From the NCBI GenBank assembly GCA_963749705.1, contig CAVVNQ010000002.1, forward strand, positions 237,176 through 301,175: a stretch of DNA of 64,000 nucleotides, given 5' to 3'. Each line of letters begins with the position of its first letter. Within the stretch, counting starts at the first letter, position 1. The position numbers were made by a program, and so were the translations under genes. Source of the DNA: an uncultured Chloroflexia bacterium (GTDB lineage Bacteria; Chloroflexota; Limnocylindria; Limnocylindrales; CSP1-4). Of this stretch, positions 6,914 to 54,649 are shown piece by piece. A model generated the notes under the pieces. It was not told the origin of the DNA and ran no database searches. It worked only from the letters and a program-made list of their open reading frames with translations.

Positions 6914-6990
6914 GGGCGATTAGCTCAGCTGGTTAGAGCGCATGCTTGACATGCATGAGGTCACTGGTTCGAGTCCAGTATCGCCCACCA
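6914..6990 (+). tRNA. tRNA-Val (GAC)
   Basis: Acceptor stem GGGCGAT/ATCGCCC, D arm TAGCTCAGCTGGTTAGAGC, anticodon arm CATGC-TTGACAT-GCATG, T arm GGTTCGAGTCC and encoded CCA. Confidence 0.97.
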
Positions 6991-48806: not shown

Positions 48807-50744
48807 TCAGGCGGGGAGCGGACGCAGCTCCGGCGCCTCGAGCATCGTCGGTGAGCGGTCCACGGTCGGCCGCGCCTGCTGGGCGAACAGGAACAGCGCG
48901 AGCCGCGCGCGCGCCCGGTGCTGGCCGGGCAGGAACTCGAGGCCATGGACGAGACCGCCGCGGGGATCGCGGCGGACCGAGCGGACCACCGCGCGCAGGA
49001 CGAGCGGCGCACCGGGCTTCGAGAGCACCAGCCTGACCTTCGACCCCGGGACGATCTCCGTCCCCGCCACGACCCGGGCGCCGGCGGCCGACACGTCGCG
49101 GGCCTCCGCGGCAAAGTCGCCCAGCAGGGCCGGCAGCGCGACATCGAAGCGCACGCTGGCTCGCCGCTCCGGGGCGTACCGCAGCGACCGGATGCGCACG
49201 ATCGCGAGGCACACGAGCGCGACGTTGAACAGCAGCCAGCAGAAGGCGGCGATGACCGCGCCCGGCTCGGCATAGGTGACGAACGTGCGGCCGAGGAGCG
49301 TCAGCGCAAACCATGCCGCCGAGAGGAACGACGCCACCAGCAGCGCCCGAAGCGGCAACGGCACCCGGACGCGACTCCGGCCATCGCCCAGGCGGCCCTT
49401 GGGGGTGACCACGAACGCCGGTCGCCGGCGGGTCACCAGGGTCAGCGTGGCACGCAGGTTCGACGTCATCCGGACCAGCTCGAACACGATCGACAGGACC
49501 GGCCGGTGGCAGCCCCGGCTGAGGGCGAGCAGGGCCAGCTGCTGGAGCAGGAACGTGGACACGAATGCCGTCGCAAAGACTCGCAGGTCGGCGCGGATCG
49601 GGACGGCGCCCGTGAGCACGACGACCATCGGGAGGATCGCGAAGGCGAGCGTCCGCCAGGCGTCGAACCAGCCGAGCAGCGTGGCCGCGTACGACAGCCG
49701 CTGGGGCAGCGTCAGACCGGACACCCACAGCGGATTCTCGCGGCGCAGGACCTGCATCGCGCCGGTGCCCCAGCGCAGGCGCTGGAGCTGGTACGTGTCG
49801 GCATCGCCCGCCGCCAGGCCGCGCGCGAGCACCTCGTTGTGGTACGCGGTGCGCCAGCCGTGCCGGTGGAGCCGGATCGTGGTGTGGATGTCCTCGGTGA
49901 TCGTGTCCGTTGCGACGCCGCCGACGTCACGCAACGCGGCGACCCGGACCACGGCGCCGGTGCCGCACCAGAACGCACCGCCCCAGCGGTTCTTGCCCGG
50001 CTGGAGCATCCGGTAGAACAGCGCCTGCTCGTGGAACCGCTCGCCGTCGCCGGCCACCGCATCGTGCTCGAAGGAGTCGTGGTTGTAGAACTCCTGCGGC
50101 GTCTGGACGAGGGCGATCCGCGGGTCGTCGAAGTAGCCGACGGTCCGAACCAGGAGGTTGCGATCCGCGACGTGGTCGGCGTCGAGGACGGCGATCAGGT
50201 CGGCGTCGATCACGGTCAGCGCGTGGTTGAGGTTGCCCGCCTTCGCGTGGGCATGGTCCGTGCGGGCGAGATAGTGGACGCCGAGCGACCGTGCGAGCCG
50301 CTCCACCTCGGGCCGTGCGCCGTCGTCGAGGACCCATGTCTCGTGGCGCAGCCGGATCGCCCTGGCGGCGGCGATCGTGGGCAGCAGGATCTCGATGCCC
50401 TCGTTGTACGTGGGGACCAGGACCGCGATCCGCAGCGGCGTCGACCGGACGTCGCGGTGGGCCGGCCGCCGGTCCACGTCCCACAGCGAGAACGCGAACA
50501 GGGCGAGGCCGAGCGTCGCGTGGATCTCCAGCACCAGGAGCGGGATGGATGCCCACCACACGGCGAGATCGAGCGTCGCCGTCGCGCGCCAGGTGAGGTA
50601 GATCACGCTCGCGACGAGGGCGACGATGGCGATCCCGCGGACCACCAGCCGCCGGAGCAGGGGCTCGGGTTCGGGCAGCGCGGGGCCGGGCGCGGGGGCG
50701 CGCAGCCAGCCGAAAGCATCGGTCAGGGCTCGTTGGTTGGGCAT
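48807..50744 (-). CDS. BcsA/CelA-like GT2 processive glycosyltransferase with C-terminal PilZ domain
   Basis: PTYNE, DDG, HAKAGN, DADH, QTPQEF, FWCG, TED, QRLRW, FVVTPK; PilZ RRASVR...DVSAAG. Confidence 0.9.
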   Translation of the reverse strand: MPNQRALTDAFGWLRAPAPGPALPEPEPLLRRLVVRGIAIVALVASVIYLTWRATATLDLAVWWASIPLLVLEIHATLGLALFAFSLWDVDRRPAHRDVRSTPLRIAVLVPTYNEGIEILLPTIAAARAIRLRHETWVLDDGARPEVERLARSLGVHYLARTDHAHAKAGNLNHALTVIDADLIAVLDADHVADRNLLVRTVGYFDDPRIALVQTPQEFYNHDSFEHDAVAGDGERFHEQALFYRMLQPGKNRWGGAFWCGTGAVVRVAALRDVGGVATDTITEDIHTTIRLHRHGWRTAYHNEVLARGLAAGDADTYQLQRLRWGTGAMQVLRRENPLWVSGLTLPQRLSYAATLLGWFDAWRTLAFAILPMVVVLTGAVPIRADLRVFATAFVSTFLLQQLALLALSRGCHRPVLSIVFELVRMTSNLRATLTLVTRRRPAFVVTPKGRLGDGRSRVRVPLPLRALLVASFLSAAWFALTLLGRTFVTYAEPGAVIAAFCWLLFNVALVCLAIVRIRSLRYAPERRASVRFDVALPALLGDFAAEARDVSAAGARVVAGTEIVPGSKVRLVLSKPGAPLVLRAVVRSVRRDPRGGLVHGLEFLPGQHRARARLALFLFAQQARPTVDRSPTMLEAPELRPLPA

Positions 50745-50847
50745 GCGTCAACTGTCGATGGCGGTGCGCCGACGCGCCACGCTCCGGAAGGACTACCTGA
50801 CCCGGCCGATCGGGGGGTGCGCGAGACCACCCGGTATGCTGGCCGCC

Positions 50848-52164
50848 ATGAGCCCCCACACGACCATCGACCTCGCGCCGCCCGTCGAGAAGGCGTTCCT
50901 GCTCGCGGTCGACACGGGTGACGACCCCGGCTGGACGGCCGAGGACAGCCTGGCCGAGCTCGCCGCGCTGGCCGAGACGGCGGGCGCCGACGTGGTCGGG
51001 GCCGAGTGGCAGAACCGCCGCCATGTCGATCCCAACTGGTACGTGGGCAAGGGCAAGGCCGAGGAGATGCTCCAGGCGAAGTCCGAGACCGGGTTCGACG
51101 TCCTGGTCGCGGACGACGAGCTGAGCCCGGCGCAGCAGAAGAGCCTGGAGACGCTGCTCAACGTCAAGGTCATCGACCGCAGCCGGCTGATCCTCGACAT
51201 CTTCGCCCTCCACGCGCAGACGCACGAGGGCCGGCTCCAGGTCGAGCTCGCCCAGCTCGAGTACCAGCTGCCGCGGCTGACCCGCCTGTGGACACACCTC
51301 TCGCGCACGGGTGGCGGGATCGGCACCCGGGGCCCGGGCGAGTCACAGCTGGAGACCGACCGCCGGCTCATCCGCCAGCGGATCAAGAAGATGAAGGAGC
51401 GGGTCGACAACGTCCGCCAGCAGCGACAGACGGCGGCCCGTGGCCGCGATCGGCGCCTGTACTCGACGGTCGCGATCGTGGGCTACACGAACGCCGGCAA
51501 GTCGACCCTGCTCAACGCCCTCGTCGGCTCCGAGGTCGCGCGTGCCGAGGACAAGCTGTTCGCGACGCTCGACCCCACCTCGCGCCAGGTGAAGCTGGGC
51601 GACGGGCAGACCGCGATCGTGACCGACACCGTGGGCTTCATCCACAAGCTGCCGCACCAGCTGGTCGATGCGTTCCGGGCGACGCTCGAGGAGGTCACCC
51701 GCGCCGACGTCCTGGTCGAGGTCGTCGATGCGGCGGACACGCACCACGACGAGCACCGGGCGACGGTCCAGGTCGTCCTCGACGAGCTCGCCGCGGGCGA
51801 CAAGCCACGGCTCGCCGCGTTCAACAAGGCCGACCTCCTGTTCCCCGTCGCGGACGGCTCGAACCCTGCTCCCGCCGTTGGCGGCTCGGTGCTCGTGTCC
51901 GCGGTGACCGGGTTCGGGCTGGACACGCTGCGGGCCGAGATCGCCGCCCTGCTCGCATCACTGTGGGAGGACGTCGACGTCGCGGTGCCGTACGCTGCCG
52001 GCGAGCTGCTCGCGCGCGTACGCGAGCGGGGCACGGTGGACCTCGAGTACGGGAACCACGACGTGCGTGTCCGGGGCCGGATGGCGCCCGCGATGGCGGG
52101 TGAGCTGCGCGCCGCCGCCGACCGCTGGCGGGAGACGCTGGTGGCCGACGGGGTCACGTCCTGA
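50848..52164 (+). CDS. hflX: GTPase HflX
   Basis: GKGK, LILDIFA, QVELAQLEY, GPGESQLE, GYTNAGKS, LFATLD, DTVGF, NKAD. Confidence 0.97.
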   Translation: MSPHTTIDLAPPVEKAFLLAVDTGDDPGWTAEDSLAELAALAETAGADVVGAEWQNRRHVDPNWYVGKGKAEEMLQAKSETGFDVLVADDELSPAQQKSLETLLNVKVIDRSRLILDIFALHAQTHEGRLQVELAQLEYQLPRLTRLWTHLSRTGGGIGTRGPGESQLETDRRLIRQRIKKMKERVDNVRQQRQTAARGRDRRLYSTVAIVGYTNAGKSTLLNALVGSEVARAEDKLFATLDPTSRQVKLGDGQTAIVTDTVGFIHKLPHQLVDAFRATLEEVTRADVLVEVVDAADTHHDEHRATVQVVLDELAAGDKPRLAAFNKADLLFPVADGSNPAPAVGGSVLVSAVTGFGLDTLRAEIAALLASLWEDVDVAVPYAAGELLARVRERGTVDLEYGNHDVRVRGRMAPAMAGELRAAADRWRETLVADGVTS

Positions 52165-52166
52165 GC

Positions 52167-52767
52167 ATGCCCGGCGGGGCCACGCCGCCCGCCCGGATCG
52201 CCGGGTCGGTGCAATTGGAGGATGGCGCTCGCCTGACGTGGGTCCTCGCCGAGGGCCGGCGCGGCCGACGCTGGCGAGCCACGCTCCTGGCGCCCGACGG
52301 CCGCTTGGCGCGGGCGACCCTGCTTGAGGTGGACCTCGACGGCCGTCCGACGAGGCTCGAGATCGCCGGCCCCGACGGCCTGCTCACCGTTCATCCGGGC
52401 GACGACGGGCGTCGCCTCCACGGCAACGTCGTGCGCCCGACCGGGATCGACCACGTGGACCTGCCGTGGACGATCGATCACGCGCTGCTCGACGGCGGGT
52501 CGCCGGTCACGGTTGCGGTGGCCGTCGCGGCGCTGCGGGACCGGATCGGGGTAGGGGAGGGCCGCGCGATCGAGGTGGTCGAGGTGACACCCGACCTCGC
52601 CGTCCGCCCCGGGACGTGGACCGTCGACCGGCTGGCCGAGCGCCGCTGGCGCGTTCGCCGGCGCGGACGCCGGCGTCGAGCTGACCGTCGAGCTGGACGA
52701 GCTGGGCATCCCCGCAAGCCTCGGTGGGGGAGCCGCGTGGCCGCTGGAGCTCGAGCCGCGGCGATAG
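52167..52767 (+). CDS. Hypothetical protein (beta-rich); probable frameshift near 52660
   Basis: The plausible coding frame turns into Arg-rich noise at about 52660. The alternative frame continues ADAGVELTVELDELGIP...WPLELEPRR* to TAG 52767. Confidence 0.6.
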
Positions 52768-52817
52768 GCACGCTCGTCGCCATGGCGGGCTCCGCCGACC
52801 CGCCGTCGTGGACGGAC

Positions 52818-52867
52818 TGTGGACAACCGACCATCCCGGTCCCGCGATCGGCCCAAGTCGTGGATAA
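52818..52867. promoter_or_regulatory. Two DnaA-box-like 9-mers (TGTGGACAA; CGTGGATAA)
   Basis: The reverse complements TTGTCCACA (52818-52826) and TTATCCACG (52859-52867) are in the same orientation, 41 bp apart. Confidence 0.6.
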
Positions 52868-52872
52868 GCCCG

Positions 52873-52901
52873 TTGTGCGGGCCCCGGGGCTCCCGTAATA
52901 T
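52873..52901 (+). promoter_or_regulatory. Sigma70 promoter TTGTGC-N17-TAATAT
   Basis: Near-consensus hexamers with a 17-bp spacer. The predicted +1 (about 52908-52909) coincides with the start of a long hairpin. Confidence 0.7.
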
Positions 52902-52908
52902 TCGGTTT

Positions 52909-52994
52909 GCCCGAAGGGGCCAGAAGGAACGGCGACGGAGCCGCAGGTGCTTGCATCAGCGGAGACCGGGCCGGGCCGGAGGGTTCCTTCGGGC
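52909..52994 (+). ncRNA. Candidate ~86-nt rod-shaped small RNA (6S-like architecture, family unassigned)
   Basis: 13-bp closing stem (52909-21/52982-94, two G-U pairs), 8x8 internal loop, interrupted upper stems, G(CUUG)C apical loop, and its own promoter. Confidence 0.6.
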
Positions 52995-53038
52995 GTTTCG
53001 TTGCGTCCGGCAACCACGCGCTCGGTATCATCGTCGCG

Positions 53039-54649
53039 ATGGATGGGGACCCGACAGCCGCGACAGATCGCGCCGCGACACATCGCGCCAGGTCCGCGCC
53101 GTCATGGCGTCGCCGCCTGCCCGTCCACCCGTTGCTGTTCGCCGTGTACCCGGTCCTGTTCCTGTACGGGGAGAACCTGGGCGAGGTCGAGCCTGGTGAC
53201 CTGGTCGCGCCCCTCGCCCTGGTCCTGGCCGGGACGATCGCGACCTACCTGATCGCCCGGATCCTGCTTCGCTCCACCGGCCGGGCAGCCCTCGCAACGA
53301 CCCTGCTGGTCGCCGTCCTGTTCGCCCACGGTCGCGTGCTCGCGCTGGTCGCCGGGAGCCCGATCGCCGGCGGGCGGCTGCTGCTGGTGTCGGGCGCCAT
53401 CGTCGTGGTGGGCCTTGCCGCGGTCGTCCTCGTCCGGCGCGATCCCCGCCGGCTCAACAACGCGCTCGACATCGTTGGTGCGGTCCTCGTGGTCGTGTCG
53501 CTCGTCGGCATCGTGAGCTACGAGGTCCCGCGGGCGGTGCGAGGGACCGAGGCGGGGGACGGATCGGACGCGATCTCCTCGAGCGGCACGACCACGCGGG
53601 ACATCTACTACATCGTCGTCGAGGACATGGGCTCACCCAGGACGCTCGAGGAGCACTTCGGGCTGACCGACACGCACGCCTTCGACTGGCTGACCGAGCT
53701 CGGCTTCGAGGTGCCCGCGGACAGCAAGGTGAACTACGGCAAGACCGTCCACATGCTCGCGTCGACGATGAACATGGAGTACCTGGACGGCGTCGCGGCG
53801 GCCGCCGGCACGGACTCCTCCGACTACCATCCGCTGTTCCGGCTGGTCGACGACAACTCCGTGGCCCGGTTCCTCAAGGGCCAGGGCTACCGATACGTCC
53901 ATATCGGCTCCTGGTGGGATCCGACCGAGAAGAGCTCGATCGCCGACGTGAACTACGGGATCTCGGCGCCGTCCGACTTCGCGACGGCGCTGCTGGACAC
54001 GACCATCCTGCCGGCGATCCTGGATCGCCTGCCGCGGATCGGGATCCGCCTGCCGATCGACGTCGAGCTCACCGGCGAGGACGCCCAGTACGAGGGGGCG
54101 CTGGTCGGGTTCCGGAAGCTCCAGGACGTCGCGACGGAGCCTGGCCCGAAGTTCGTGTTCGCGCACATCCTCGTGCCCCACAAGCCGTACGTGTTCACCG
54201 CGGACGGGCGGCGCCTGACGCCCCAGGGGCGAAGCGGGCATACCCGGGCCGAGAGCTTCCTCGGCCAGGCGCTGTACGTCAACAGCCGTCTCGAGGACAT
54301 CTCGCGGACGCTGCTCGCCGGCCCCGAGGCGACGCGGCCGATCATCATCATCCAGACCGACGAGGGGCCCAACCCGACGGGTCTCGATGACGATGCCGCG
54401 AGCTTCACGTGGACCGCCGCGACGCAGCAGGACCTGGAGATCAAGTACCCGATCCTCAACGCGTTCTACCTGCCCGGCCTCGCCGACACCGGCGTGTATC
54501 CGGGGATCACGACCGTCAACACCTTCCGGCTGGTCCTGAGCAAGTACTTCGGCGCCGACCTGCCGCTCCTGCCCGACCGCCTGTTCATCTACCACGACAA
54601 GGCGCACCCCTACGACTTCACGGACATCACGGACCGCCTCAGCCCCTGA
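53039..54649 (+). CDS. Membrane-anchored alkaline-phosphatase-superfamily (sulfatase/LtaS-like, NoeB-like) enzyme
   Basis: About 5 N-terminal TMs; DIYYIVVED, NYGKT (Thr nucleophile position), FAHILVPHKPY, IIIQTDEG, VNTFR. Confidence 0.8.
   Translation: MDGDPTAATDRAATHRARSAPSWRRRLPVHPLLFAVYPVLFLYGENLGEVEPGDLVAPLALVLAGTIATYLIARILLRSTGRAALATTLLVAVLFAHGRVLALVAGSPIAGGRLLLVSGAIVVVGLAAVVLVRRDPRRLNNALDIVGAVLVVVSLVGIVSYEVPRAVRGTEAGDGSDAISSSGTTTRDIYYIVVEDMGSPRTLEEHFGLTDTHAFDWLTELGFEVPADSKVNYGKTVHMLASTMNMEYLDGVAAAAGTDSSDYHPLFRLVDDNSVARFLKGQGYRYVHIGSWWDPTEKSSIADVNYGISAPSDFATALLDTTILPAILDRLPRIGIRLPIDVELTGEDAQYEGALVGFRKLQDVATEPGPKFVFAHILVPHKPYVFTADGRRLTPQGRSGHTRAESFLGQALYVNSRLEDISRTLLAGPEATRPIIIIQTDEGPNPTGLDDDAASFTWTAATQQDLEIKYPILNAFYLPGLADTGVYPGITTVNTFRLVLSKYFGADLPLLPDRLFIYHDKAHPYDFTDITDRLSP

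Follow-up and report, generated by a model that had tools for sequence, protein, structure and literature searches.

What is encoded by the short inverted repeat that begins at position 52,909 of a 64,000-nt stretch of DNA from an uncultured Chloroflexia bacterium (assembly GCA_963749705.1, contig CAVVNQ010000002.1, positions 237,176 to 301,175; the whole stretch is called the window below)? A first-pass annotation, made from the letters alone, had proposed an independent, undescribed small RNA (sRNA) shaped like a miniature 6S RNA, which would bind RNA polymerase or act as a protein sponge. The bacterium belongs to the Limnocylindria, which are abundant and uncultured in soil and freshwater, and to our knowledge almost nothing is known about RNA regulation in the Chloroflexota beyond a few cultured classes.

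We have examined the locus by folding, covariation and comparison with related genomes. The interpretation that we favour, with rather more confidence than doubt, is an independently transcribed, structured sRNA of about 90 nt that represents the A-type of a family of sibling genes in two Limnocylindria families (as sampled), that would be gated by a DNA-binding factor and that would act in trans. The likeness to 6S RNA, on the other hand, is not borne out.

Fold and conservation of the RNA

The features of the locus are collected in Table 1. The annotated promoter is found with the spacing and coordinates given to it: TTGTGC-N17-TAATAT stands directly before the rod, and the 7-nt TCGGTTT separates TAATAT from G52909, where a helix of 13 bp begins (52909-52921 paired with 52982-52994; P1, or the clamp). 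This closing stem, too, can be read from the sequence as described, with its two G.U pairs G52918.U52985 and G52919.U52984. The interior of the rod consists of short helices with small purine-rich loops between them, capped by GGUG-CUUG-CAUC. The CUUG loop lies at 52950-52953 with the closing pair G52949-C52954, and this G(CUUG)C-capped hairpin and the GUUUCGUU 3' of the helix are both present, in agreement with the first reading.

Two further structural proposals fare less well. What had been taken for an 8x8 bubble, with the sides AGAAGGAA (52922-52929) and GGCCGGAG (52974-52981), is split by two G-C pairs in the minimum free energy (MFE) structure, and in relatives the region is a covarying helix. 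The suggested second conformation has a basis in this genome, where GAAGGAAC (52923-52930) is the exact complement of GTTCCTTC (52983-52990), but the combination GAAGGAAC/GUUCCUUC is seen in just 3 of the 30 sequences of the genus and in 4 of 103 from the wider family.

The sRNA core has an MFE of -54.9 kcal/mol, compared to -41.9 +/- 3.4 kcal/mol in 200 shuffles (z -3.82, with one shuffle equally good). For the opposite strand the MFE is -40.3 kcal/mol (z -2.25), and a weaker fold is expected there if the G.U pairs matter. A simple scan of 52000-54000 returned two terminator-like sites where 0.2 are expected, one of them being 52976-52992 with the tail; under its stricter rule it returned no sigma-70 consensus promoter in this interval. 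The clamp directly precedes GUUUCGUU, as a terminator stem should, but the helix is long-range and not compact, and the local alternative hairpin is flagged in this genome only. Four to six T are found among the first 8 nt of the tail in 100 of 103 members. A BLAST search of the sRNA region against its own genome returned the region itself and two short pieces of one paralogue, and hence no dispersed repeat of the genome-wide, REP-like kind that the first-pass annotation had kept in view. We also considered a small open reading frame (ORF), given that GGAG-N6-GUG inside the hairpin opens a frame of 101 codons; the 34-nt hairpin duplications and compensatory changes described below are incompatible with coding.

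Table 1. Features of the locus and its siblings; positions without a contig label refer to the window
Feature	Position	Strand	Basis or remark
hflX	50626..52164	+	Pfam GTP-bdg_N/M, MMR_HSR1, HflX_C; conserved upstream neighbour of the sRNA
Gene of a conserved ~190-aa protein, between hflX and sRNA	52167..52766 (end estimated from frame translation)	+	no Pfam family at useful E
Distal upstream box GTGGACAA	52819..52826	+	same orientation as proximal box, 41 nt upstream of it
Proximal upstream box GTGGATAA, DnaA-box-like	52860..52867	+	starts 49 nt before the RNA
TTGTGC, -35-like hexamer	52873..52878	+	sequence; (G/A)TTGnn kept in genus, not across wider family
TAATAT, -10 hexamer	52896..52901	+	17 nt after TTGTGC; TAnnnT 13 nt before clamp in 94 of 101 family members
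Predicted sRNA: 86-nt folded core 52909-52994 plus GUUUCGUU tail	52909..53002	+	fold, covariation, covariance model R2 (77.1 bits); ends inferred
Clamp helix P1, 5' strand GCCCGAAGGGGCC	52909..52921	+	common to all four siblings of this genome; 99.5% of cells paired in A4 alignment
Inner helix P2, 5' strand CGGC	52930..52933	+	pairs with 52970-52973 in MFE structure; equivalent helix covaries (CG/UA/UG/GC/AU)
Apical hairpin module CCGC-A-GGUG-CUUG-CAUC-A-GCGG	52941..52962	+	1, 2 or 3 tandem copies in relatives
Clamp helix P1, 3' strand GGUUCCUUCGGGC	52982..52994	+	tandem G.U retained in 36 and 37 of 37 distinct sequences
U-rich tail GUUUCGUU, with P1 a presumed intrinsic terminator	52995..53002	+	consensus GTTTcgtTGt; GTTTCGTT in this genome
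Sibling A	52909	+	86 nt; tetraloop-capped GGUG/CAUC
Sibling B	C4:22014		180 nt, three branches
Sibling C	C10:33745		73 nt
Sibling D	C8:360513		142 nt, three hairpins

Relatives of the RNA were collected by BLAST over 60 genomes for the genus, and by a covariance model (CM), called R2, over 151 genomes of the class Limnocylindria. Full-length homologues are found in 29 of the 36 other genus genomes, giving with the copy of the window a genus set of 30 sequences; the remaining seven genomes show weak matches alone, and six of these are at most 90% complete. Of the 44 genomes of the window's family, 40 contain a match to the model; in a second family, 28 of 50 genomes contain a shorter, C-like form of 64 nt (a tally that includes two unpublished genomes). 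A wider pattern scan, with one genome per GTDB species, gave at least 125 loci. Among the matches listed, more than 100 species records are represented, mostly labelled Candidatus Limnocylindria/Limnocylindrales, Chloroflexota or 'Chloroflexia' metagenome-assembled genomes, and the 3' half of the clamp follows within 260 nt in 112 of 131; the other 19 either stop at a contig end or come from records that bear the name of another phylum, and these last were taken as chance.

The relatives differ in the number of apical hairpins, which is one, two or three in 17, 11 and 2 of the 30 genus sequences, 13 of which are accordingly branched; for the 112 wider matches (among the matches listed) the corresponding counts are 74, 37 and 1. 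Each added unit of about 34 nt turns the rod into a three- or four-way junction, and the length of the RNA ranges with hairpin number from 79 to 170 nt.

Covariation among homologues, which had been named as a check, was found in two alignments. In an alignment of 28 sequences covering P1, P2 and the apical hairpin, for which single-hairpin copies had been fetched by exact motifs, 93.9% of the cells are paired, and six pairs have changed on both sides compared to 2.4 +/- 1.0 in shuffled alignments, a value reached in 1 of 500. Because this set had been fetched by exact motifs, R2 was built and the class genomes were searched with it. The resulting 39 matches (37 distinct) from 30 loci, re-aligned to R2, pair in 94.5% of the cells, compared to at most 49.2% when the partners are slid. 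Compensatory changes are seen in 11 of 23 pairs, with 61 both-side-changed cells versus 17.9 +/- 3.2, and none of 500 shuffles reaches any of the observed measures. This alignment is fitted to the model and thus favours the structure, a bias that the slid controls address.

In the CM alignment, pair 6 of the clamp covaries (A-U 26, G.U 6, G-C 4), the U-A pair of the hairpin is invariant in 37 of 37 sequences, and the neighbours of that pair covary together with the lower stem. The apical loop varies (CUUG, UUUA, GCGA, CCUG and longer forms), and in the exchange of CUUG for UUUA the first and last loop bases change together. Scored on both strands, the sense sequences reach 95.6, 91.9 and 91.4 bits and their antisense counterparts 44.8, 46.9 and 43.6 bits, a difference of about 45 bits. 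Judged from these sequence comparisons, which establish conservation, structure and strand, the stretch is a real, conserved and strand-specific structured RNA gene.

Sibling genes and their promoter

The first-pass annotation had not noticed that the RNA has siblings. The own genome (3.6 Mb, 88% complete) carries four genes with the same ends (Table 1), all of which possess a promoter with a GTGGAYAA box, the near-invariant clamp GCCCGAAGGGGC / GUUCCUUCGGGC with its tandem G.U, and a U-rich tail. The promoter pattern (TGGAYAAS, 2-5 nt, TTG, 19-22 nt, TAnnnT) occurs exactly four times in the 3.6 Mb, each time directly before GCCCGAAGGGGC. Box and clamp together are found in 35 of the 151 class genomes, with 33 of 44 in the window's family and 1 of 6, 0 of 49, 0 of 50 and 0 of 1 in the other four; positive genomes have one to four occurrences, and a reversed control gave none. 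The family of genes and its promoter architecture are thus, like the fold, well established by comparison. The neighbours of the three other siblings are unrelated to one another: a NUDIX gene, MoaA with a PNP/UDP phosphorylase, and a peroxiredoxin-domain protein.

Between these constant ends the interiors differ, and one hairpin module, GRU(G)-loop-(C)AUC over a purine mismatch, is reused in one to three copies. Forty fetched copies sort into classes that recur across genera. Class C has the loop GCGAU(C/G)AC(A/C)UCAA, class D one to three GAGAUCACAUCAAGG hairpins, and class B three or four branches, some bearing the class D hairpin. The loop GAUCAC(A/C)UCAA is common to classes C, D and some B, and the related bases of the A-type are locked in a 4-bp stem under the tetraloop. 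In the 64-nt form of the second family (16 copies), the G-C pair at the end of the clamp is replaced by U-A in 13 copies and by U.G in 3, and the loop reads GAUCACAUCAA or GAUUGCAUCAA. Since the GAUUGCAUCAA variant has UGCAUCA in common with the A-type hairpin, we read all hairpins as one module of a lower stem, an A.A or GA/AA mismatch and GRU(G)...(C)AUC.

In many genera the A-type gene is tandemly duplicated, with 250-1200 bp between the copies and a box promoter for each (L058/L059, L065/L066, L067, L092, L099/L100, L101/L102, L115/L116, L117, L119/L120, L139, L149 and L158, and further G166:C13, G129:C1, G163:C39 and G108:C4). The window's genus duplicates the hairpin within one gene instead.

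We now consider the boxes. Among 103 unique A-type genes, 95 carry GTGGAYAA at a distance of 49-51 nt upstream of the clamp, and relaxing the last two bases raises the number to 99. Of 120 unique A-type promoters, 93 have another box of like orientation 41-55 nt upstream of the first, compared to a background of 0.34 such 7-mers per 200 nt on either strand. The -35 element is kept within the genus only.

We take the box to equal the core of the DnaA box, TTATCCAC/TTGTCCAC. The spacer between dnaA and dnaN (G000:C3:187500-188010), which is likely oriC, is the richest 510-bp window of the genome for GTGGA/TCCAC (9 versus 1.25 expected, 1 of 7026) and contains TTATCCACG and TTGTCCACG. In the own genome the 9-mer CGTGGATAA/TTATCCACG is found in this spacer and in the sRNA promoter only. 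The degenerate proximal box of the second family counts against DnaA. From the sequence pattern, the boxes may be DnaA sites, an assignment to which we give a minority share of our belief; were it correct, the sRNAs would stand under the replication initiator, an arrangement of which the part of the literature reached in one search yielded no case. The same box also occurs at G000:C15:75276 (-), where GTGGACAAGCCTATTGACA is followed by a second TTGACA + TATAAAT in unusually A+T-rich surroundings, a strong consensus-like promoter without a clamp RNA.

Mode of action and competing explanations

In the mechanism that we propose, the two direct GTGGAYAA boxes, which precede the RNA by about 50 and 92 nt, would bind a factor that drives or gates transcription. 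The transcript would start at the first base of the clamp, 13 nt downstream of the first base of the -10 hexamer. The near-invariant clamp of 12-13 bp joins the first to the last bases of the transcript and, with the U-rich tail, would terminate transcription and protect both ends; its sequence may additionally be read by something else. The variable interior consists of one to three hairpin modules, each with a covarying lower stem, a purine mismatch and GRU(G)/(C)AUC under a tri- or tetraloop, and the sRNA would act in trans.

For the A-type we favour binding of a partner over base pairing, because all constant parts are helical, namely the tandem-G.U clamp and an apical stem whose invariant U-A sits above the purine mismatch, and because the loop is interchangeable and the module tandem-duplicated. 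Helical constancy, an interchangeable loop and a tandem module are hallmarks of decoy RNAs. Within the preferred interpretation, we therefore suggest tentatively, as the likeliest mode, that the A-type offers its hairpin module(s) and its clamp to one shared partner, serving as decoy or scaffold much as CsrB/RsmZ do but with a different protein. A more specific version, in which DnaA switches a Csr-like decoy system through the boxes at about -50 and -92 and the one to three GRU/AUC hairpins titrate an RNA-binding protein, appears improbable to us; it would couple the state of replication initiation to post-transcriptional control.

It is important to point out that a number of observations weigh against a gated, trans-acting, partner-binding sRNA. 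The transcription of the sRNA, with its start and end, is deduced from sequence; no RNA sequencing run carrying the stretch is listed, the 19 runs that are listed being of DNA type, with small shares. The invariance of the clamp in the large sets stems largely from the exact fetch motifs, and the CM set is less biased, although the model was built from those sequences. The proximal box is degenerate in the second family (GGGGATAAG, GTGGAGAAG). As to a partner, Hfq is found in 0 of 151 class genomes, and neither CsrA (Pfam) nor Ro60 was found in the own genome at its 88% completeness. The protein of about 190 aa encoded next to the sRNA is predicted to have a DUF1089-like beta fold without sign of RNA binding, and it was found in no more than 21 of the 44 family genomes and in none of the 50 from the second family. 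Finally, most known sibling sRNA families work by base pairing, and siblings C and D have a conserved 13-nt loop suited to it.

Base pairing is indeed the main alternative to partner binding. The RNA would then be of the antisense type, like Qrr, csRNA and LhrC but without Hfq, and its purine-rich internal loops or opened hairpin would pair with mRNAs. We regard this as a serious rival, chiefly for the exposed 13-nt loop of siblings C and D, while considering it on balance unlikely. Several paralogues under a shared regulated promoter are what it would lead one to expect, and the loop GAGAUCAC(A/C)UCAAGG, present in one to three copies in C and D, shares GAUCAC.UC with the 3' tail of the own 16S rRNA, GGAUCACCUCCUUUCU, which would suit pairing at ribosome-binding sites; UGCAUCA is moreover common to the A-type hairpin and the 64-nt form of the second family. 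However, the 9-nt match to 16S rRNA is not significant (BLAST E 3.8), and most loops have CACAUC and not CACCUC. The A-type is without a single-stranded stretch conserved across genera, its conserved bases being in P1 and the apical stem while the stable tetraloop changes identity, and the exact complement of the hairpin top occurs just four times elsewhere in the genome. Compared to the streptococcal csRNAs, Vibrio Qrr and Listeria LhrC, the present family is similar in having three to five similar, dispersed genes of about 70-180 nt with a common regulator-type promoter, a regulator site in place of the -35 and a presumed terminator, and it shares with sibling sRNAs in general the several paralogous short genes of common promoter architecture and presumed terminator. 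Those families, in contrast, keep a common single-stranded seed, whereas the A-type keeps helical bases alone, and here the sibling interiors differ greatly around a constant terminal clamp, in a class of which 0 of 151 genomes gave an Hfq.

The remaining explanations are considerably less probable. Of these, a cis-acting role within the hflX operon, in which the RNA would be a terminator or a structure of the 3' UTR and its promoter incidental, is very unlikely. It does fit the position, since in 28 of 29 loci of the genus and 15 of 30 of the family the RNA comes right behind hflX and the ~190-aa gene, on their strand, as well as the terminator-like clamp and tail. Half of the family loci, however, lie away from hflX. 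Box, -10 and spacing are conserved in about 95 of 103 members, and likewise at another three places in the genome where hflX is missing, and a plain terminator requires neither covarying inner helices nor duplicated hairpins. We give hardly any weight to the idea of a small 6S analogue whose promoter-like bubble would bind RNA polymerase. In this genome the RNA is a rod with a closing stem and internal loops, its 5' and 3' ends pair as in 6S RNA, the gene is independent, and the role could be unfilled, as no recognisable 6S gene was detected: the 6S model RF00013 gave nothing in the whole own genome at E up to 10. Since the same model also missed 7 of 14 control genomes, its silence is weak evidence either way. 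Against 6S, the core has 86 nt compared to a rod of about 180 nt, no 6S, Ms1 or other Rfam family matches, and the supposed bubble is unconserved; the relatives branch into junctions of variable length as described above, and a clamp shared with three siblings of very different interior corresponds to no feature of 6S RNA. Nothing in the analysis points to binding of RNA polymerase. Least probable of all is a feature of the DNA and not of RNA, such as a protein-binding palindrome or a small mobile repeat. The clamp halves do form an imperfect inverted repeat, and there are few copies per genome, sometimes in tandem. But the G.U pairs make the fold strand-specific, as seen in both the folding energies and the CM scores, compensatory changes preserve RNA pairs, promoter and tail flank the element in a single orientation, and its positions are syntenic and not scattered.

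Comparison with described RNA families leads to a similar picture. At gathering thresholds Rfam matched only a tRNA in the whole window (6914-6987, +), and nothing at the sRNA. At E up to 10, no 6S or SRP match was obtained in 52600-53300; in line with the first-pass annotation the SRP helix-8 motif is absent from the locus, the SRP RNA of the genome being at G000:C8:25501-25600 (74.2 bits). The single weak, gapped match was to NLPC-P60 (RF03033), with 19.8 bits against a gathering threshold of 53.7, an E of 0.77 and an alignment that passes over 64 of the 96 model positions. The two ends of this model do have look-alikes in the RNA, namely 24 nt around the hairpin (GGUGCUUGCAUCA..) and CGGAGG, but the RNA is not upstream of an NlpC/P60 gene and four unrelated sites in the own genome score about equally; we put the match down to chance or to a stable tetraloop hairpin common to both. 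For the classes of the four siblings Rfam gave no usable match at E up to 1, those to SNORA57 (E 0.0016, beside sibling B) and HTT-AS1 being spurious eukaryotic families.

Membership of two groups with protein partners was also considered. Like CsrB/CsrC and RsmX/Y/Z, the family has several paralogues per genome, a weak -35 accompanied by a conserved site upstream, a presumed terminator as last element and one small hairpin module in varying copy number. Unlike them, it has loops of CUUG, UUUA, GCGA or GAUCACAUCAA in place of GGA and a 5'-3' clamp that has no counterpart there, and no CsrA gene was found in the own genome by Pfam. These differences lower the case for belonging to the Csr/Rsm group, not the idea of a sponge-like way of working, which is plausible. 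With bacterial Y RNAs the family has in common the paralogues, a conserved stem of the 5' and 3' ends (the protein-binding site in Y RNAs) and a variable interior, but a tRNA-like module is lacking and no Ro60/TROVE match was obtained in the own genome (88% complete), so that membership finds no support here either. Mimicry of rRNA was likewise discarded: BLAST of the siblings against the own rrn operon gave matches of 8-11 nt with E of 0.24 or worse, among them CGAGCTTGCT (16S V1 hairpin) and GATCACCTC (16S 3' end), which we do not rely on.

No paper combining Limnocylindria with sRNA, or describing sibling small RNAs in Chloroflexi, was found in the literature searched. Given this and the lack of an Rfam match, we regard the family as undescribed, as the first-pass annotation had supposed for the RNA; it apparently belongs among the sibling regulatory sRNAs and not with 6S relatives. 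It combines three unusual traits, namely a constant terminal clamp, an exchangeable hairpin cargo and a dedicated two-box promoter, and its covariation data are good enough to start an Rfam family from. Should a protein bind the hairpins, the family would point to a global RNA-binding regulator in a lineage without Hfq (in the class) and CsrA (in the own genome).

Neighbouring genes and further elements

That the RNA has homologues downstream of hflX in relatives, as had been anticipated, holds for 28 of 29 genus loci; the ~190-aa gene precedes it on the same strand in 27 of 29, and in the family hflX is upstream in 15 of 30 loci. The A-type gene is kept there beside the gene of a ribosome-rescue GTPase. 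On the other side, the downstream gene is conserved in 0 of 29 genus loci, and in the window it is an ORF from the ATG at 53039 that encodes an unconserved membrane protein without Pfam family. As this gene is not conserved beside the sRNA, the latter is not its leader, and with a promoter of its own and a terminator-like end the proposal of an independent structured sRNA gene stands.

The ~190-aa protein has the motifs W.VA.GRRGRRWR, LLTLHP, LHGN and WPLE. Its predicted structure is all-beta (pLDDT 94.1), and the best Foldseek match is PA1994/DUF1089 with an E of 1.3e-6 and a TM of about 0.5. We considered it as an obligatory partner of the sRNA and rejected this idea on its distribution, the protein being absent from half of the family genomes with the RNA and from the second family. 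In the window the frame of the gene appears to break near 52650, and the conserved C-terminus (..DELGIPA..WPLELEPRR*) goes on in the +1 frame to a stop at about 52766. Because the C-terminus ends there, the 243-codon ORF at 52167-52898, which overlaps the sRNA promoter, is probably an artefact of a frameshift or a pseudogene.

Divergent from hflX, at 48807-50744 (-), lies the gene of a glycosyltransferase-2 protein with a C-terminal PilZ domain, a BcsA-like polysaccharide synthase of the c-di-GMP type.

A second conserved element, ..GACCGGCAUCCCGGUGUCGGUAC.. in a long hairpin, is located just downstream of sibling D (G000:C8, about 360290-360370, -). Rfam gave no match to it at E up to 10 except spurious eukaryotic families. 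It is found 3' of the class D sRNA in 11 of the 11 D-class loci listed (L210, L213, L214, L220, L224, L225, L227, L229, L234, L238 and the own genome) and upstream of the PNP_UDP_1 phosphorylase gene, and it may be a leader or riboswitch candidate.

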